Virus record (IMG/VR): IMGVR_UViG_3300020030_000075
Span: 1 to 6,299 of that record
Direction: 5' to 3' (one strand)
Origin: a virus
Length of the DNA: 6,299 nt
Position 1 is the first letter of the stretch. Every line of letters starts with the position of its first letter. A program made the position numbers and the translations under genes. The notes below the pieces were generated by a model. The model saw only the letters and a program-made list of their open reading frames with translations. It did not search any database and was not told where the DNA came from. This document shows positions 1 to 6,299 of the stretch, piece by piece.

Positions 1-121
1 AGGCACAAGGTACTTCCCAGTTGCTTGATGCTGAAGCTAAGACCGTTCTTAACAGGTATCTTGACCAACAGCAGCAGGCTGATCTGAATGTCAAGGCTTC
101 TGAGTATTACAACCAGATGTC
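1..121. repeat. Terminal direct repeat: assembly overlap of a circular genome, identical to 6179..6299
   Basis: Read base by base: 1..121 is the same string as 6179..6299. The offset is 6178 nt. The repeat lies inside a coding frame that closes across the junction. Confidence 0.95.
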
Positions 122-452
122 TCATGGTCATTTGAATTATAGCCAGGCTAAAAAGGTTCTTGCTGATGAGGTCTTGACTTATGCTCGTGCTAAAGGTCAA
201 AAGATTAGCAACAAGGTTGCTGAAGCTACTGCTGATTCTTTGATCCGTGCTTCTAACGCAACTAATCATTCGAATGCTGAATTTGAATCTGAAGCTGCTA
301 AATTTAACCGCGAACGTGCTCGTTCTCGTAGTATTGAGGATTGGTATCGTTCCCGTAATGAAGGCAAGAAATATAAGTATTATGACGCCGATAAGGCCGT
401 TCATTATGGTACTGCTATTGGCAATACTGTAGGAAACTTTCTGCCCTGGTAG
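1..452 (+). CDS. VP2: VP2 minor capsid / DNA pilot protein, C-terminal part, continuing 5569..6299 across the circular junction
   Basis: The first full codon starts at 3 and the stop is TAG at 450..452. Position 21 corresponds to 6199, which is in the same frame as the ATG at 5569 (both are 1 mod 3 in genome coordinates). The track start at 21 (TTG) is therefore an artefact of the window edge. The sequence is Q/N/A-rich and coiled-coil-like with a basic tail (RERARSRS, KKYKYY), as expected for microvirus pilot proteins. Confidence 0.85.
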   Translation, partial: AQGTSQLLDAEAKTVLNRYLDQQQQADLNVKASEYYNQMSHGHLNYSQAKKVLADEVLTYARAKGQKISNKVAEATADSLIRASNATNHSNAEFESEAAKFNRERARSRSIEDWYRSRNEGKKYKYYDADKAVHYGTAIGNTVGNFLPW

Positions 453-853
453 TATCTTCTGCTTTTTTGTTTATTGTGTGTTTACCCGGCTCGTAGTGAT
501 ACGCGTCGGGTTTTGTTGCTTGGAGTAACTTCCGGCAACCGCGCGTAGCGTGGTTATACACCTACTGAATTCCGGGAGACTCGTCGACTGGAATCAGAGC
601 CGTTAGGCTATAGTACTGCCATCCTGGAAACTTGACGCTTGCAACGCGTAGGCAATCTCCCGGAGAACTTCTCTCTGCCGTCGCCGCTATACCCCTAAAA
701 TATTGTTTGACGAAGTCTACATGAGTTTGTCCGGAGGAAAAGCGATTTACCTCATCGCTTTCAGTCTCCCCTTGTCTTATATACGCAAACTCACAGACTA
801 GCCTGCCACCCGCATAGCTTATTGTTTATTAATGTTAATATTTCACGTTGACA
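453..853. other. ORF-free, GC-enriched, highly self-complementary intergenic region; candidate complementary-strand origin and/or structured RNA
   Basis: No ORF of 60 aa or more on either strand. Hand count of 541..600 gives 33/60 G+C. Coding stretch 3541..3600 gives 21/60 G+C and 31/60 T. Helices I could pair by eye: 484..511; 515..539; 537..555 (8 bp, 3-nt loop); long-range 571..579 with 656..664 (9 perfect bp); 598..609; 733..769 (perfect 8-bp core AAAGCGAT/ATCGCTTT); and an enclosing helix 715..730 with 785..798. Confidence 0.6.
484..518 (+). terminator. Candidate rho-independent terminator downstream of VP2
   Basis: The stem is A-CCCGGC-(T)-CGTA, loop GTGA, TACG-(C)-GTCGGG-T at 484..511, with one internal mismatch and a GNRA-type loop. 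T-rich TTTTGTTG follows at 511..518. It sits about 30 nt after the VP2 stop codon. Confidence 0.5.
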
Positions 854-886
854 TTTGCTTTATTCAAATTTTTGTTCATATCTTTG
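854..886 (+). promoter_or_regulatory. Candidate Bacteroidetes-type promoter (-33 TTTG / -7 TAnnTTTG)
   Basis: TTTG lies at 854..857, followed by a 21-nt spacer and then TATCTTTG at 879..886. This matches the Bacteroides primary-sigma consensus as I recall it (TTTG, roughly 19-21 nt, TAnnTTTG). It lies about 40 nt upstream of the first ORF of the gene string (ATG at 928). A TTGACA hexamer at 848..853 directly abuts the -33 TTTG. Confidence 0.4.
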
Positions 887-927
887 CCTCTGTCTTTAAA
901 ACATGTCTAATTTAAATTTTTGATTTT

Positions 928-1101
928 ATGGAAAAGTATTATCTGTGTTCTATTCAGTCGAAGGTAAATCCTAATCAGAACGAGACTGTTCTTGTACCCG
1001 TTGACGAAGTTTCTGCATTCGTTTCTTCAAATCTTCGTCCGGACTGTATTCTCATCCTTTCTCAATGTTCAACTTTTAAAGCCATTTCTGATGAAAAGTG
1101 A
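928..1101 (+). CDS. Hypothetical small protein, 57 aa (MEKYYLCSIQSKVNPNQNETVLVPVDEVSAFVSSNLRPDCILILSQCSTFKAISDEK)
   Basis: ATG at 928 and TGA at 1099..1101. It is absent from the track, presumably because it falls below the length cut-off. Third codon positions are T-rich, like the confirmed genes. It is the first ORF after the promoter-like motif. I recognise no family. Confidence 0.4.
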   Translation: MEKYYLCSIQSKVNPNQNETVLVPVDEVSAFVSSNLRPDCILILSQCSTFKAISDEK

Positions 1102-1180
1102 AACTAAATCTAAAATCTGGTCTGCTGTTATTGCAGCTGCTGTCAGCCTTCTTACGTCTATTGCCCAAATTTTTTCGTAA
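1091..1180 (+). CDS. 29-aa signal-peptide-like / single-TM mini-protein (MKSETKSKIWSAVIAAAVSLLTSIAQIFS); candidate holin-like partner or detached signal peptide of the downstream peptidase
   Basis: ATG at 1091 and TAA at 1178..1180. The layout is a charged N-region (MKSETKSK), a hydrophobic stretch of about 17-20 aa, then small residues S-I-A. It is in the same frame as the peptidase gene, which starts 3 nt after the stop. The track's TTG-started 992..1180 version adds an F/L-rich off-frame-looking extension, which I do not trust. Confidence 0.4.
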   Translation: MKSETKSKIWSAVIAAAVSLLTSIAQIFS

Positions 1181-1183
1181 GTC

Positions 1184-1492
1184 ATGAACCCCGAATTAAT
1201 GAAATTCCTTGGATGGCTTCTCTGTCGGAATGTCCATTTTACTGTTACTTCTGCTTTTCGTACCAAGGAACAGAATGAGGCATGTAATGGTTCTAAAACT
1301 TCTCAGCATCTGACTGGAGACGCCGTTGATCTTAAGCCTGTCGACCTTACGGTTGATGGTTTCCTCTCGTTGGTTAGGGTTTCTCCCTTTAAATTTGACC
1401 AACTTATAAAATATCGCACATTTGTTCATGTTTCCTTTGCTCGTGGCCGTAATCCTCGTCAAATGGAATTAGATTTTACAGATAGAAAATGA
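1184..1492 (+). CDS. Zinc D-Ala-D-Ala carboxypeptidase-like peptidase (Peptidase M15 / LAS-type), putative endolysin, 102 aa
   Basis: VTSAFRTKEQNEACNGSKTSQHLTGDAVDL matches the M15_3-type core (SGYR..N..GG..SxH..GxAxD) as I recall it. The H-x6-D pair is H42 and D49, and a second His (H82) lies in TFVHVSF. The ATG is at 1184. The TGA at 1490..1492 overlaps the VP4 start (ATGA). Confidence 0.85.
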   Translation: MNPELMKFLGWLLCRNVHFTVTSAFRTKEQNEACNGSKTSQHLTGDAVDLKPVDLTVDGFLSLVRVSPFKFDQLIKYRTFVHVSFARGRNPRQMELDFTDRK

Positions 1493-3198
1493 TTACTAAG
1501 GAATTGCAGAATAAGCTGGTGACTCGTTGTCAGCATCCTCGTACGGTTATTAATAAGTACACGCGCGAGCCCGTTGTTGTTTCTTGTGGCTCTTGCCCGT
1601 CTTGTATTCTTCGTCGTTCTGGTGTTCAGACCAACCTTCTCACTACTTATTCTACCCAATTCCGTTATGTATATTTTGTTACTCTTACTTATGCTCCTTG
1701 TTTCCTCCCTACTTTGGAAGTTTCGGTTGTTGAGACTTGTACGGATGATATCGCGGATGTTTCCGTCGTTCCCGATATTGATGACTTGGACCCTGGTGAC
1801 CCTAACACTTATTTGTTTGGTTTTCGTAGCGTTCCTCGTTCTGCCTCTGTTAAGTTAAAAACCTCTACTGTTGAGCGTACCTTCAAAGACTCCGAGATAA
1901 AATTTTCTTATCCTATGAAACCTAAGGATTTATTGTCTATTCTTGGTAAGATTAACCATAATATTCCTAATAGGATTCCTTATGTATGTAATCGTGATCT
2001 TGATTTATTTTTGAAACGTTTAAGAAGTTACTACCCAGATGAAAAATTACGTTACTACGCTGTATCAGAATATGGGCCGACTAGTTACCGCCCGCATTGG
2101 CATTTGTTATTGTTTTCCAATTCCGACCGATTCTCGCAAACTGTTCTTGAAAATGTATCTAAAGCTTGGTCTTATGGTCGTTGTGATGCGTCACTCTCGC
2201 GAGGATTCGCAGCTCCGTATGTTGCGTCGTATGTTAATAGTTTTGTCGCTTTACCCTCTTTTTATACGGAGATGCCAAGATTATTGCGACCAAAATCCTT
2301 CCACTCCATTGGATTTACAGACTCAAATCTCTTCCCTCGAAAGGTCCGAATTGCCGAAATTGATGAAGTTGCCGATAAGTGTCTTAATGGAATACGCGTT
2401 GAACGGGATGGCTACTTTCGGATTCTTAAGCCTTCGTGGCCGTATATCCTTCGATTATTCCCCCGATTTTCAGACTCTATTCGTAAATCTTCATCGAGTA
2501 TTTACCAGCTATTATCTGCTGCGTTTACAGCGCCCGAACGAGTCATTCGTAGCGGATTCTCTGATTTGAGTTGTGACCCTTTTAACCCTAATCCTCTGTC
2601 TAAACAGAGCTTATTGTCTTTTTGTAAACAGTATTTAAATTATGTAGATAATTATGGAAAGGAATATTCTTCAAAAAATTTACTTGTACCAAAGGAAAAT
2701 TTACCGTATAGCGATATTCTTGTTCTTACTGAATGTCGTCTCTATGATGGTGTTAATTTGGACCCGGATTTTCGTTTATCCCGCTGCTATCGATTCTTTC
2801 TCTCGATGTCTAAATTCTTTCGGACATATTATGATGAGTTCGGAGCAAACTTCTATCCCGAGTCCGAGCGATATGCCGGCTGCTTTGCGTGTCGAGACAG
2901 AACGTTTCGAATCCTCTCCGAATCAATAGTATCCTTTTGGAATCGTTATGACTATAATCGTCTGGTTGATTTTTATCAGACTTTGGAAGATTCCAATGAT
3001 AAGGATTTGGTTGATTTTGAGCTTCGTAATTATTCGTTTCGTTATAATAGGATTGACTTTGGTAAGAAAGCGGAGCCCGATTATCAAAAACTTCCTCTTG
3101 TTCGTCGTTTGGCCGCCGCTGCATTGATTAAATGCAGGGATAAGGTCAAACACAAGAGGTTGAATGATTTGTCTGGTATCTATTCTTACTCTGATTAA
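1489..3198 (+). CDS. VP4: Replication initiation protein VP4 (HUH rolling-circle endonuclease, phiX174 gpA-like), 569 aa
   Basis: RCR motif I FVTLTY lies at 1675..1692. The HUH motif HWHLLLF lies at 2095..2115. The two-tyrosine motif YVASYVNS lies at 2218..2235 (Y-x3-Y, close to the YVAKYVNK I recall in phiX174 A). There is an N-terminal Cys cluster (C14, C33, C36, C39; SCGSCPSC). Confidence 0.93.
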   Translation: MITKELQNKLVTRCQHPRTVINKYTREPVVVSCGSCPSCILRRSGVQTNLLTTYSTQFRYVYFVTLTYAPCFLPTLEVSVVETCTDDIADVSVVPDIDDLDPGDPNTYLFGFRSVPRSASVKLKTSTVERTFKDSEIKFSYPMKPKDLLSILGKINHNIPNRIPYVCNRDLDLFLKRLRSYYPDEKLRYYAVSEYGPTSYRPHWHLLLFSNSDRFSQTVLENVSKAWSYGRCDASLSRGFAAPYVASYVNSFVALPSFYTEMPRLLRPKSFHSIGFTDSNLFPRKVRIAEIDEVADKCLNGIRVERDGYFRILKPSWPYILRLFPRFSDSIRKSSSSIYQLLSAAFTAPERVIRSGFSDLSCDPFNPNPLSKQSLLSFCKQYLNYVDNYGKEYSSKNLLVPKENLPYSDILVLTECRLYDGVNLDPDFRLSRCYRFFLSMSKFFRTYYDEFGANFYPESERYAGCFACRDRTFRILSESIVSFWNRYDYNRLVDFYQTLEDSNDKDLVDFELRNYSFRYNRIDFGKKAEPDYQKLPLVRRLAAAALIKCRDKVKHKRLNDLSGIYSYSD

Positions 3199-3224
3199 TA
3201 TGTTTCACTAAATTATTTTTTTTT

Positions 3225-5072
3225 ATGGCTTCTTACACCGGAATGTCCAATCTTCAGAACCATCCTCACCGTTCTGGATTTGATATTGGACGTAAAAATG
3301 CTTTTACTGCAAAGGTTGGTGAGCTTCTCCCTGTCTATTGGGATATTTCTATGCCTGGTGACAAGTATAAGTTTAACGTTGAGTATTTCACCCGTACTCA
3401 GCCTGTTGAAACTTCTGCTTATACTCGGTTGCGTGAATACTTTGATTTTTATGCTGTGCCGTTGCGTCTTCTCTGGAAGTCTGCGCCTTCTGTATTGACA
3501 CAGATGCAGGACGTCAACCAGATCCAGGCTTTGTCTTTGACACAGAATTTGGCTCTTGGTACTTATTTGCCTTCTCTTTCTTTGTTTCGTTTATTTGATG
3601 CTATCAGCTATCTTAATGGCAATTCTTCAAATCCGGATAGTTCATCTGGTTATAAAAACTCTTTTGGTTTTTCTCGTGCTGATTTGTCTTTCAAATTGTT
3701 GAATTATCTTGGTTATGGAAATTTTATTTCTTCTGCCCCTTCTGATAATTCTCGTTGGTGGTCTACATCTTTACGAAAAAATAGTGCCTCGTCGTCTTAT
3801 TCTCAACAGTATATCCAGAATAGTATTGTAAATCTTTTCCCTCTTCTTGCTTATCAGAAAATTTATCAGGATTTTTTCCGTTGGTCTCAGTGGGAAAATA
3901 GCAATCCTTCTTCTTATAATGTTGATTATTTCACGGGAACTTCTCCTCAGTTGGTTGATTCTTTGCCTAATTTGGCTTCTAACTATTGGAAATCCGATAC
4001 AATGTTTGACCTCAAATATTGCAACTGGAACAAGGACATGCTGATGGGTGTTCTCCCGAATTCCCAGTTTGGAGATGTTGCTGTAATTGACCTTCCTACC
4101 GGAGGTGCCAGCCTTACTGTTGCTGATACTAATGGCTCTCTGCATCCTGTTGGTACTGCTACTGTCATGTCTTCTGGCATTGCTACTTCTCCTGTCGGTG
4201 TTCAGTTGTCTTCCGGTCAAACGGTAAAAGCTGGTTCTATCTTTTCTGTTGATGTTAAGGATATTGCTTCTAAGTTTACGGTTCTTGCCCTTCGCCAGGC
4301 CGAAGCGCTTCAGCGTTGGAAAGAAATCAGTCAGTCCGGTGATTCCGACTATCGTGAACAGATTCGCAAACATTTTGGTGTGAATTTGCCCCAGGCTCTT
4401 TCCAATATGTGCACCTATATTGGTGGTATCTCCCGTAACTTTGATATCAGTGAGGTTGTGAACAATAACCTTGCTGCTGAAAAAGATACTGCCGTTATTG
4501 CCGGTAAGGGTGTCGGTGCAGGAAACGGTTCTTTCACTTATACTACTGATGAACATTGTGTCGTTATGTGCATTTATCATGCCGTTCCTCTTCTCGATTA
4601 CACTATTACTGGCCAGGACGGTCAGTTGTTGGTTACTGACGCCGAGTCCCTCCCGATTCCGGAGTTTGATAATATTGGTATGGAGGTTCTTCCTATGACG
4701 CAGATTTTCAATTCTCCGAAAGCTTCTGTTGTCGATTTGTTCAATGCTGGATACAATCCTCGTTATTTCAACTGGAAGACCAAGCTTGATGTCATTAATG
4801 GTGCCTTCACCACTACTCTTAAGTCTTGGGTTTCTCCTGTTACCGAGTCTCTCCTTTCCGGATGGTTTGGTTTTGGTTATCAAGAAGGTGATGTTGACAA
4901 GAATACCAGGGTTGTTTTGAATTATAAATTCTTTAAGGTTAATCCTTCTGTTCTTGATCCTATTTTCGGCGTTAACGTTGATTCTACTTGGGATACTGAC
5001 CAGTTGTTGGTTAATTCTTATATCGGTTGCTATGTTGCCCGTAATTTGTCTCGTGATGGTGTACCTTACTAA
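3225..5072 (+). CDS. VP1: Major capsid protein VP1 (Microviridae F-protein family), 615 aa
   Basis: N-terminus: NLQNHPHRSGFDIGRKNAFTAKVGELLPVYWDISMPGDKYKF. Internal: LLAYQKIYQDFFRW and LRQAEALQRWKEISQSGDSDYREQIRKHFGV. These are the conserved blocks I recognise from microvirus capsid proteins, and the FTAKVGELLP form is the Alpavirinae-like flavour. The ATG is preceded by a T9 run (3216..3224) with no Shine-Dalgarno sequence. Confidence 0.95.
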   Translation: MASYTGMSNLQNHPHRSGFDIGRKNAFTAKVGELLPVYWDISMPGDKYKFNVEYFTRTQPVETSAYTRLREYFDFYAVPLRLLWKSAPSVLTQMQDVNQIQALSLTQNLALGTYLPSLSLFRLFDAISYLNGNSSNPDSSSGYKNSFGFSRADLSFKLLNYLGYGNFISSAPSDNSRWWSTSLRKNSASSSYSQQYIQNSIVNLFPLLAYQKIYQDFFRWSQWENSNPSSYNVDYFTGTSPQLVDSLPNLASNYWKSDTMFDLKYCNWNKDMLMGVLPNSQFGDVAVIDLPTGGASLTVADTNGSLHPVGTATVMSSGIATSPVGVQLSSGQTVKAGSIFSVDVKDIASKFTVLALRQAEALQRWKEISQSGDSDYREQIRKHFGVNLPQALSNMCTYIGGISRNFDISEVVNNNLAAEKDTAVIAGKGVGAGNGSFTYTTDEHCVVMCIYHAVPLLDYTITGQDGQLLVTDAESLPIPEFDNIGMEVLPMTQIFNSPKASVVDLFNAGYNPRYFNWKTKLDVINGAFTTTLKSWVSPVTESLLSGWFGFGYQEGDVDKNTRVVLNYKFFKVNPSVLDPIFGVNVDSTWDTDQLLVNSYIGCYVARNLSRDGVPY

Positions 5073-5086
5073 ATCTTGTTTTGATT

Positions 5087-5569
5087 ATGATTGGAAAATT
5101 TAATAGTTTGGATAGTCTGGAACAAGGTTCTGGACTTACCCCTAATGTTACTCCGGATGCTTTTGCAGTTGCTCCCGAATTTGATTCTACCGAGCAGCTT
5201 CGTGTTGAAATTTATGATAACGAAGAAGACCGTCCGGTGCGTTATACTTCTGATATTCGTCTGATTCTTCATACCAAGGACTTGGCTTCCCGTGCCGGTC
5301 TTGCTGTTGCCTCCAAGTTTGGACAGAACAAGCAGTCCGTCTCTCAGATTCAGCAGATTATGGACAGGATGTCTGACGATGACCTTTTGTCGACGGTTCG
5401 CTCCCGTCATATCCAGTCTCCTTCTGAGATTATTGCCTGGTCTAAGGAGTTGTCGGCTTATGCTGAAAATCTTGAAGCCCAGGCACAGGAATTGATTGAT
5501 GCTGAAAACGCTAAACAAGAAGCAGAAAAGGCGGCTGCTGCTTCCGCCGATGCTGCTTCCTCTGAATAA
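5087..5569 (+). CDS. Hypothetical acidic protein, 160 aa; positional candidate for the internal scaffolding protein (VP3-like)
   Basis: The first ATG is at 5087; the track begins at a TTG at 5081. The gene lies between VP1 and VP2. It has an acidic, Ala/Glu-rich helical C-terminus (AQAQELIDAENAKQEAEKAAAASADAASSE). Its TAA (5567..5569) overlaps the VP2 ATG (TAATG). The function is inferred only from position and composition. Confidence 0.7.
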   Translation: MIGKFNSLDSLEQGSGLTPNVTPDAFAVAPEFDSTEQLRVEIYDNEEDRPVRYTSDIRLILHTKDLASRAGLAVASKFGQNKQSVSQIQQIMDRMSDDDLLSTVRSRHIQSPSEIIAWSKELSAYAENLEAQAQELIDAENAKQEAEKAAAASADAASSE

Positions 5570-6299
5570 TGGGTCTTCTTGGTTCAATCACTGGTGGTCT
5601 CCTTGGTATTGGCTCTTCTGTGGTTCAGAATTCGCAGAACAGACAAAATGTCCGGGAGACTAACCAGATGAACTATAAGATAAATCAGATGAACAACCAG
5701 TTTAACGAACGTATGGCGATACAGCAGCGTAATTGGCAGGAGAATATGTGGAATAAGGAAAATGCTTATAACACTGCTTCTGCCCAGCGTCAACGTCTCG
5801 AAGAAGCTGGTTTGAATCCTTATCAGATGATGAATGGCGGTTCTGCTGGAACTGCACAATCCGTTGGTTCTGGTGCTTCTGCCTCTTCTGCTGGTTCTGC
5901 CGTCATGCAGCCTTTCCATGCTGATTATTCCGGTGTTCAGCAGGCTATCGGTTCTGTATTCCAGTCCCAAGTTCAGCAGGCTCAAGTTTCACAGTTACAA
6001 GGTCAGAAAAATCTTGCTGACGCCCAGGCTATGCAGGCTCTTTCCAATGTTGATTGGTCTAAGATGACGAAAGAAACCCGTGAGTATCTGAAAGCTACTG
6101 GCTTGGCTCGTGCTCGGCTTGGTTATTCCAAAGAAATGCAGGAACTTGATAATATGGCTTTTGCCGGACGTCTTCTCCAGGCACAAGGTACTTCCCAGTT
6201 GCTTGATGCTGAAGCTAAGACCGTTCTTAACAGGTATCTTGACCAACAGCAGCAGGCTGATCTGAATGTCAAGGCTTCTGAGTATTACAACCAGATGTC
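5569..6299 (+). CDS. VP2: VP2 minor capsid / DNA pilot protein, N-terminal part; open to the window end and continuing at 122 after removal of the duplicated 121 nt
   Basis: My translation from the ATG at 5569 has no stop before the window end, which is why it is missing from the track. It reads MGLLGSITGGLLGIGSSVVQNSQNRQNVRETNQMNYKINQMNNQFNERMAIQQRNWQENMWNKENAYNTASAQRQRLEEAGLNPYQMM... The N-x-M/N-rich block ending in AGLNP is the conserved microvirus VP2 signature I recognise. There is a Gly-rich hydrophobic N-terminus. The full product is 353 aa (610 nt + 452 nt). Confidence 0.85.
   Translation, partial: MGLLGSITGGLLGIGSSVVQNSQNRQNVRETNQMNYKINQMNNQFNERMAIQQRNWQENMWNKENAYNTASAQRQRLEEAGLNPYQMMNGGSAGTAQSVGSGASASSAGSAVMQPFHADYSGVQQAIGSVFQSQVQQAQVSQLQGQKNLADAQAMQALSNVDWSKMTKETREYLKATGLARARLGYSKEMQELDNMAFAGRLLQAQGTSQLLDAEAKTVLNRYLDQQQQADLNVKASEYYNQM
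6179..6299. repeat. Terminal direct repeat, second copy of 1..121
   Basis: Identical string to 1..121. Confidence 0.95.

Follow-up and report, generated by a model that had tools for sequence, protein, structure and literature searches.

A Conserved 29-Codon Membrane Peptide Gene Directly before a Trimmed Peptidase_M15_3 Gene in an Alpavirinae-Like Microvirus

Two Small Genes Directly Precede the Replication Gene

We analyzed the 6,299-nucleotide (nt) virus sequence IMGVR_UViG_3300020030_000075 of IMG/VR (positions 1 to 6,299, hereafter the window), focusing on a peptidase gene at 1184–1492 on the plus strand and on a short, unannotated open reading frame (ORF) directly before it. The peptidase gene encodes 102 amino acids (aa), comprising a trimmed catalytic domain of the Peptidase_M15_3 family with a predicted LAS fold. 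The preceding ORF, at 1091–1180 (+), has 29 codons and encodes MKSETKSKIWSAVIAAAVSLLTSIAQIFS, a 29-aa peptide with one hydrophobic segment of transmembrane (TM) type; we refer to it as the TM ORF. Its stop codon lies 3 nt before the ATG of the peptidase gene. The stop codon of the peptidase gene, TGA at 1490–1492, in turn overlaps the ATG (1489–1491) of the gene for the replication initiator Rep, forming an ATGA tetranucleotide at 1489–1492 (+). The string of ORF A, TM ORF, peptidase, and Rep is headed by ORF A (928–1101, +; 57 aa, acidic), which overlaps the start of the TM ORF by 11 nt. Because these four genes abut or overlap, they are probably translated as one string.

Microviruses outside the phiX174 group count among the commonest phages in the mammalian gut. 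Lying side by side and each under strong purifying selection, the genes of 29 and 102 codons offer a simple two-gene test object for gut microvirus lysis. GenBank annotations miss the small gene, and some records misplace the start of the peptidase.

In 11 human-associated Gokushovirinae and Alpavirinae, Roux et al. 2012 (PMC3394797) found peptidases of the M15_3 family, for which they inferred horizontal acquisition and proposed an endolysin role. The window peptidase resembles these proteins of gut Alpavirinae and Gokushovirinae in its Pfam family, the kind of virus that carries it, its position between the pilot and Rep genes, and the proposed endolysin role. Later papers described the same for further microvirus groups, including cultured isolates, and Kirchberger et al. 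2022 treated peptidases as lysis-associated accessory genes of microviruses, omitting overprinted genes. Relatives in GenBank label the gene "peptidase." The original prediction, a reading of the same DNA from its sequence alone, had judged the gene to be probably not unprecedented and its function to be untested. The first statement is correct and can be made more strongly, given the publication in 2012 and the GenBank labels, and the second agrees with the literature, in which we found no paper with an activity or genetic test. The presence of the peptidase and its lysis interpretation are thus already known since 2012. What is new here is the conserved, unannotated gene for a 29-residue membrane peptide directly before it. 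We found no mention in published accounts of the ~100-aa truncated form as a clade or of the mini membrane ORF. The added interest is modest, residing in the truncated architecture and in the conserved, unannotated membrane gene at the peptidase start.

The Peptidase Is a Conserved Catalytic Domain with a Predicted LAS Fold

A Pfam scan of the 102-aa protein identified Peptidase_M15_3 (PF08291; E = 9.1e-12, 45.5 bits versus a gathering score of 23.2) and no second domain. The protein also matched PHROG 894, annotated as "endolysin" (E = 1.1e-15), while NCBIfam gave no match. A homolog search over 5.8 billion proteins yielded 1836 relatives, and the best 120 of these are nearly all exactly 102 aa long and encoded on contigs of ~6.2–6.5 kb. 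The closest metagenomic proteins are up to 87% identical to the window peptidase, and the GenBank relatives up to 78%. The H42-x6-D49 motif (SQHLTGDAVD; 1307–1330, +), which provides two presumed zinc ligands (H42, 1307–1309; D49, 1328–1330), is invariant in homologs. The presumed third ligand and the serine typical of the subfamily lie in H82-V-S84 (1427–1435, +; H82, 1427–1429; S84, 1433–1435). All four residues H42, D49, H82, and S84 show no variation across 118 homologs of 102 aa, and H42, D49, and H82 are also invariant among 136 diverse representatives (alignment A1) obtained from a search of 1.84 billion cluster representatives. In addition to the full metal triad, Ser23, Arg26, Asn31, and Ser40 are invariant in homologs.

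The ratio of nonsynonymous (dN) to synonymous (dS) substitution rates across 42 genomes of the clade was 0.18 for the peptidase gene, versus 0.94 and 2.6 when the sequence is read in either of the other two frames; the gene is therefore under purifying selection. Of the 42 clade genomes, 41 retain the ATGA overlap with Rep, which is not universal in more distant lineages, and translation of the two genes may be coupled. The peptidase has an isoelectric point of 9.4 and a maximum 17-residue hydropathy of 1.06, and neither the hydropathy profile nor the AlphaFold2 model revealed a TM segment or a signal peptide. The peptidase gene is thus a real, conserved, and selected gene.

The AlphaFold2 model, built with the 136 diverse sequences, has a predicted local distance difference test score (pLDDT) of 97.1 and a predicted template modeling score of 0.88. 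Foldseek identified the Streptomyces albus G zinc D-Ala-D-Ala carboxypeptidase (1LBU; MEROPS M15A) as the best solved-structure match (E = 4e-4, template modeling score 0.68, root-mean-square deviation 2.8 Å). The other top Foldseek matches, including hedgehog N-domains, LysB4, LysECD7, Ply500, LdcB, and VanY, all have the LAS fold. A search of a library of viral models gave 51 fold matches at E ≤ 0.001, among them other microvirus peptidases and many tailed-phage "Peptidase M15A" proteins. The family profile likewise matched 1LBU best (E = 4.8e-12). A phmmer search with the single peptidase sequence gave no match among the PDB sequences, and 1LBU was reached at the sequence level by the profile alone. 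The prediction thus assigns a LAS fold to the peptidase. The S. albus enzyme differs in its length (213 aa), its extra N-terminal domain, and its low identity (21%), and the sequence alignment ends before the last zinc ligand. Its specificity cannot be transferred to the window peptidase. The profile alignment further places H42, D49, and H82 on the zinc ligands of Sonic hedgehog ("SLHYEGRAVD" and "HIHCS"). The H-x6-D motif, the distal His, and H-x-S of the hedgehog N-terminal domain superpose on those of the peptidase, but the domain has Glu177 and His181 and an unrelated biology.

These results support the core of the original prediction, which had described a catalytic-domain-only M15/LAS zinc peptidase carried by a microvirus, at the levels of sequence, profile, and predicted fold. 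Its zinc triad is invariant and aligns to the hedgehog ligands, and its residue numbers (H42, D49, and H82) are correct. The ATGA overlap with the replication gene is present at 1489–1492. The minimal domain said to have no wall-binding module agrees with Peptidase_M15_3 being the sole domain found. The profile comparison that it had suggested passes the curated Pfam cut-off (45.5 versus 23.2 bits), and the suggested structure prediction gave a high-confidence model (pLDDT 97.1) that matches LAS-family enzymes.

One claim did not hold, namely that Ser two residues after the last His (HVS) is an oddity that might alter activity. At this position, the 136 representatives have Ser in 111 cases and Gly in 22, with two cases of Ala and a single Asp. 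The endolysins of phages Salva and BS-TP2 read HVS, that of phage KS9 reads HIG, and H-x-S also matches the hedgehog "HIHCS." The dominance of Ser, together with HVS and HIG in endolysins of lysis cassettes, therefore identifies H-x-S as a signature of the subfamily and no deviation. The suggestion of altered activity on account of HVS is rejected, Ser being the subfamily norm.

A Probable Short-Form Lineage within the Peptidase Subfamily

At least 20 extra N-terminal residues, bearing an "HFT..E...N.P" segment, are present in 120 of the 136 representatives. In the window, no longer peptidase ORF is possible because a TAA lies at 1178–1180, one codon 5' of the ATG. The nearest neighbor of a short form is also a short form in 14 of 16 cases, which suggests a single truncated lineage. 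This lineage has diverged to ~45% identity inside Alpavirinae-like viruses. Neither the N-terminal truncation nor the upstream mini membrane ORF had been part of the original prediction. We sought a donor lineage through the clusters of the nearest long-form proteins and found no named source.

A further relative of the peptidase is the annotated endolysin of the crAss-like phage cr114_1 (NC_055897; L074 1845–2240). Its gene contains three in-frame stops, one falling on the Gln of the conserved "TSQH" motif, as would be expected if the phage recodes stop codons.

The TM ORF Is a Conserved and Selected Gene

The product of the TM ORF has a Lys-rich N-terminus followed by a single ~20-residue hydrophobic helix rich in small residues (hydropathy 2.09). 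The ORF is intact in 41 of the 42 clade genomes, the exception (L017) having an in-frame stop and an insertion. Variation is concentrated at codon position 3. Among the clade genomes, the dN/dS of the TM ORF is 0.08, and the shifted frames gave 1.4–1.9. The TM ORF is thus a real, conserved, and selected gene in fixed juxtaposition to the peptidase. At 0.30, its dS does not reach half the value for the peptidase gene (0.73), which hints at an extra constraint at the nucleotide level. We considered and rejected a longer, 62-aa TM ORF starting from TTG at 992, since variation 5' of the ATG at 1091 fits the frame of ORF A. The junction of the TM ORF stop with the peptidase ATG (region 1172–1183 of the window) holds one to several TCGTAA-like units. 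The resulting spacer measures 3–21 nt in four relatives (L007, L011, L018, and L027) and up to 56 nt in the wider survey described below, with both ORFs intact.

ORFs of the same design, encoding 26–30 aa and overlapping the peptidase start in an ATGA, were found in mar62, OP549867, mar56, and Dulem 255, 226, and 243, whose peptidases are 45–55% identical to that of the window. In two lineages whose peptidases are of the long form, a similar mini-ORF lies downstream. The mini-ORF is left unannotated in the GenBank records of the Dulem, bajarodmic, and marmot microviruses. In the records of Dulem 226 (PP511396, L069 3935–4309) and Dulem 243 (PP511322, L070 3998–4372), the annotated coding sequence starts ~21 codons too early and reads, in another frame, across a TM ORF of 28–29 aa that forms an ATGA with an internal Met. 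The Dulem 226 record labels this over-extended coding sequence "peptidase," and the Dulem 243 record labels it "hypothetical protein." The peptidase start in both records is probably mis-set.

With regard to family assignment, NCBIfam gave no match to the TM peptide. Pfam DUF6486 matched three of 10 mini-TM representatives, the best at E = 7e-5, below the Pfam cut-off, and we found no paper that mentions DUF6486. Two mini-TM relatives had sub-threshold matches to PHROG holin families (E 0.03–0.05). The TM ORF shares several traits of holin genes, in that its product is small, has one TM segment and a charged end, and is encoded next to a putative endolysin gene.

Peptidase Homologs Serve as Endolysins in Lysis Cassettes

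Homologs of the peptidase reside in the lysis cassettes of double-stranded DNA (dsDNA) phages, in the order holin–endolysin–Rz/Rz1 in Burkholderia phage KS9, endolysin–holins–spanins in Stenotrophomonas phage Salva, and as part of a holin–endolysin cassette in Bacteroides phage BS-TP2. This arrangement shows that, in dsDNA phages, the homologs fill the endolysin position of holin/spanin cassettes. The three endolysins (KS9 gp42, Salva gp29, and BS-TP2 gp6) adjoin membrane lysis proteins and share with the window peptidase the signature S..R, N, SQH..G.A.D, DQLI, H.S/G, R.Q, with 32–35% identity over the whole alignment. They are 130–150 aa long and contain the N-terminal "HFT..E" and the Glu77/Trp80 pair, whereas the window peptidase has none of these three features.

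The organization of the two genes in the window is like that of a holin–endolysin cassette, as the gene for a small membrane protein is fused to the start of the gene for a presumed cytoplasmic muralytic enzyme. An overprinted gene like that for phiX174 protein E was not found, although no search was aimed at one. The membrane components themselves differ. The holins of the related dsDNA phages are 100–150 aa long, have several TM segments, are accompanied by spanins, and are unrelated to the 29-aa peptide, to which they show no resemblance. Unlike tailed-phage holins, the mini-peptides have 26–30 aa and one TM segment, and also occur without an endolysin. Downstream of the endolysin gene in BS-TP2 (L073 2258–2952), we noticed a gene for a 52-aa protein with a C-terminal TM segment ending in "…VAVAASIIMQIL," which recalls the microviral mini-peptides. 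The product of the second downstream gene of BS-TP2 combines an N-terminal lipobox with a C-terminal TM segment, which would fit a unimolecular spanin.

We regard the peptidase as a probable lysis enzyme. M15A-type domains of this fold are also found within large proteins of the tailed-phage tail or baseplate (such as Gp5-OB-fold proteins and a 1191-aa cell wall hydrolase); by analogy, the window peptidase could be a virion-associated entry enzyme that opens the wall during DNA delivery. However, the gene lies between accessory ORFs and Rep, away from the structural genes, its closest non-microviral relatives are the free-standing endolysins of lysis cassettes, and close relatives whose capsid and pilot proteins are similar lack the peptidase. 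To our knowledge, no microvirus virion carries such a peptidase, and we consider an entry function quite unlikely.

The missing export signal also raises the question of whether the peptidase might act on cytoplasmic substrates. In the manner of VanX or VanY, it would cleave wall precursors (D-Ala-D-Ala or the UDP-MurNAc-peptide), starving cross-linking and causing lysis without a holin, as an enzymatic counterpart of phiX174 protein E. The only solved member of the family, 1LBU, is a D-Ala-D-Ala carboxypeptidase, VanY and VanXY share the fold, and classic microvirus lysis blocks wall synthesis (PMC3394797). This activity would nevertheless leave the tightly coupled membrane peptide unexplained and sits poorly with homologs that serve as the endolysin gene beside holins and spanins. 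Beyond the fold, no VanX-specific similarity was detected (VanY matches at E > 0.06). Precursor cleavage therefore appears very unlikely.

Co-Occurrence of the Two Genes

We surveyed 88 complete-size genomes from GenBank and IMG/VR, gathered via both the peptidase and the capsid protein, with hidden Markov models of the peptidase and the mini-peptide. Both genes were detected in 66 genomes, the peptidase only in two, the mini-TM ORF only in two, and neither in 18. The mini-ORF is located directly upstream of the peptidase gene in 69 of the 71 genomes having both, with gaps of −4 nt (ATGA) in seven genomes, +3 nt in 53, and 9–56 nt in nine.

A Proposed Route to Lysis

We propose that the ORF at 1184–1492 may encode the endolysin of a temperate, Bacteroides-infecting, Alpavirinae-like microvirus. 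The product would be an M15_3/LAS zinc metallopeptidase of ~100 residues, in which His42, Asp49, and His82 would hold the zinc and Ser23, Arg26, Asn31, and Ser40 might line the substrate site. It would cut a peptide bond in the peptidoglycan stem or cross-link. As the protein has no export signal, it should accumulate folded in the cytoplasm. Most likely, the 29-residue membrane peptide would then permeabilize the inner membrane in a holin-like manner, allowing the peptidase to reach the wall. Zinc binding, hydrolysis, the bond cut, a role in lysis and not in entry, and the holin-like action are functions that we infer from the comparisons above. Stated loosely, as a peptidase for lysis whose action requires a membrane lesion made by the virus, the proposal is one that we slightly favor. 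Its more specific part, that the TM peptide is the dedicated release factor of the peptidase, is plausible but falls somewhat short of an even chance. If active, the 102-residue catalytic core would rank with the smallest muralytic enzymes and could hold some appeal for enzyme engineering.

A wider version of this proposal is more tentative still. The 29-aa peptide and the trimmed peptidase could represent the smallest holin–endolysin-type cassette described, consisting of two translationally fused genes in ~400 nt. The mini-TM family, part of which belongs to DUF6486, would then be the long-sought lysis effector of Bacteroides-infecting Alpavirinae-like microviruses, acting alone where there is no peptidase and as the release factor where a peptidase has been inserted behind it. 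We consider this possible but rather doubtful.

Several observations weigh against the proposal. On the side of the enzyme, the Peptidase_M15_3 profile is covered only at positions 43–108 of 108, and the window peptidase is without the ~30–40 N-terminal residues of typical family members. Tyr77 aligns to the hedgehog catalytic Glu177, and Phe80 to hedgehog His181, the first His of HxH, so that the sequence offers no obvious candidate for a general base. On the side of the membrane peptide, the window peptide has no match in Pfam or PHROGs at E ≤ 10, holin families included, and the link between the window-type peptide and the other mini-TM peptides consists of position and an 81% hhalign probability that spans 16 columns. 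One clade dominates the co-occurrence counts, which lack phylogenetic independence, and adjacency alone is weak evidence because all accessory genes share the interval between the pilot and Rep genes. Furthermore, bajarodmic virus 429 and Dipodfec virus UOA04_Rod_499 keep the TM ORF and have no peptidase. Finally, no spanin-like gene is present, despite the Gram-negative host.

The N-terminal truncation and the replacement, by Tyr77 and Phe80, of residues that are catalytic in hedgehog-type or HxH-type LAS enzymes might mean that the trimmed peptidase is catalytically dead and functions as a peptidoglycan- or peptide-binding module. The distribution of these residues in the subfamily speaks against this interpretation. 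Position 77 is Tyr in 70 representatives and Glu in 60, and it covaries with position 80: Glu77 is paired with Trp80 in 60 of 60 cases, and Tyr77 with Phe80 in 53 of 70 or, counting Phe, His, and Arg together, in 67 of 70. This tight covariation suggests a packing pair and not a loss of catalysis. The Tyr77 type also includes 56 full-length proteins. The invariant metal triad together with Ser23, Arg26, Asn31, and Ser40, as well as the dN/dS of 0.18, likewise argue against a dead enzyme, which we judge highly improbable. Judged by conservation alone, the peptidase is presumably catalytically competent.

The role of the membrane peptide is less clear-cut. It could be an older, self-sufficient lysis or membrane effector, with the peptidase as a later add-on that speeds wall breakdown, or it could be unrelated to lysis and merely share a permissive interval. 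The N-terminal TM domain of phiX174 protein E is a minimal lysis effector comparable to the membrane peptide, and the small single-gene lysis proteins of single-stranded RNA phages are further analogues of a peptide acting by itself. In two peptidase-less genomes, those of bajarodmic virus 429 and Dipodfec virus UOA04_Rod_499, the TM ORF stands directly before Rep, giving the order ORF A, mini-TM ORF, Rep. The peptidase therefore looks as if it had been inserted between the TM ORF and Rep. The presence of the peptidase is also patchy relative to capsid relatedness, being present at 36–39% capsid identity and absent at ~50%, and the three of 10 mini-TM peptides that match DUF6486 belong to a family of unknown function.

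A peptidase-less sister clade (L081 and L105–L116; capsid identity ~50%) provides a further point in this direction. It encodes a conserved 65-aa protein (e.g., L108 1810–2016) in the same interval, upstream of an ORF-A-like gene. This protein begins with a segment of TM or lipoprotein type (…LFVQSC…), and its tail is rich in Ser and Thr. The link between this protein and the mini-TM group is weak (hhalign 67%), and the 65-aa family has no direct link to the window-type peptide; direct homology of the two was rejected (hhalign probability 0.2%). Against self-sufficiency, the TM ORF stop and the peptidase start are nearly always fused or 3 nt apart, with peptidases down to 45% identity, and a cytoplasmic endolysin without an export signal needs some membrane lesion. 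On balance, we regard a self-sufficient or lysis-unrelated peptide as rather unlikely, and retain permeabilization by the TM peptide on behalf of the peptidase as our working proposal. Separately, we noted in Chicken microvirus mg7_7 a gene, immediately before Rep, for a 58-aa protein with a lipobox (LVSCG).

The Window Is a Complete Alpavirinae-Like Microvirus Genome

The window has an exact terminal direct repeat of 121 nt (1–121 and 6179–6299), and therefore represents a complete circular genome with a true length of 6178 nt. Every gene is on the plus strand. Rep (VP4, the replication initiator; 1489–3198, +) matches Pfam REP_ORF2-G2P and PHROG 942 and is followed by the gene for the major capsid protein (3225–5072, +; Pfam Phage_F, PHROG 514), a scaffold-like gene (5081–5569, +), and the gene for the pilot protein VP2 (353 aa, +), which extends from 5569 across the ends to 452. 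A non-coding stretch of ~480 nt follows the pilot gene and precedes ORF A. The capsid and Rep matches confirm that the carrier is a microvirus, as the original prediction had assumed, and GenBank relatives with the same gene layout, from lemur, rodent, and marmot feces, are annotated as Microviridae. The virus is an Alpavirinae-like microvirus with a complete circular genome. An Rfam scan of the window gave no match.

Integrated Relatives Lie beside Bacteroides-Type Genes

On metagenome contigs encoding an 83%-identical peptidase, the virus is present in more than one tandem copy, with gyrA, a TPR gene, clpB, and htpG next to it (L062 9300–16200; L063; L064 6420–6620). The GyrA encoded beside the integrated relative is 89–91% identical to Bacteroides GyrA. 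The location of the integrated relative beside Bacteroides-type genes therefore indicates that the clade is temperate and has Bacteroides-type Gram-negative hosts. An AT-rich core of ~25 nt, ATATTAAACAT..TGATGATATT, is common to the left, right, and viral junctions, and we take it to resemble a dif/XerCD-type site. A temperate life and Bacteroides-type hosts match the descriptions of Alpavirinae (Roux et al. 2012, PMC3394797; Kirchberger et al. 2022). A RefSeq homolog of the peptidase, WP_285948558.1, comes from a Bacteroides congonensis assembly and is annotated as "D-Ala-D-Ala carboxypeptidase family metallohydrolase." A scan of GTDB species genomes for integrated close copies yielded only distant relatives, with ≤47% identity over part of the protein.

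ORF A and the Upstream Non-Coding Region

The variation of ORF A by codon position (0.50/0.26/0.79) is of the coding type. Its counterparts occur in relatives with and without the peptidase, always in the pilot–Rep interval, where they precede the mini-TM ORF if one is present and Rep otherwise. ORF A has no Pfam, PHROG, or NCBIfam match. Its single-sequence AlphaFold2 model (pLDDT 81.5) has a beta-beta-alpha-beta fold, for which no fold match was obtained, the best PDB match having E = 0.46.

No sigma-70-type promoter was found in 440–1500. A TTTG-N21-TATCTTTG sequence occurs at window 854–886, 42 nt upstream of ORF A, and presumably fits the Bacteroides −33/−7 promoter consensus. The Bacteroides-type −7 motif TAnnTTTG is present in the window five times versus 5.6 expected; at this chance frequency, the copy at 879–886 constitutes no evidence on its own. 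Farther upstream, the non-coding sequence at 465–798, 3' of the pilot gene, appears by eye to be richer in G+C than its AT-rich flanks. It is 87.5% identical to the matching part of the integrated relative, and could hold the origin or other cis elements.

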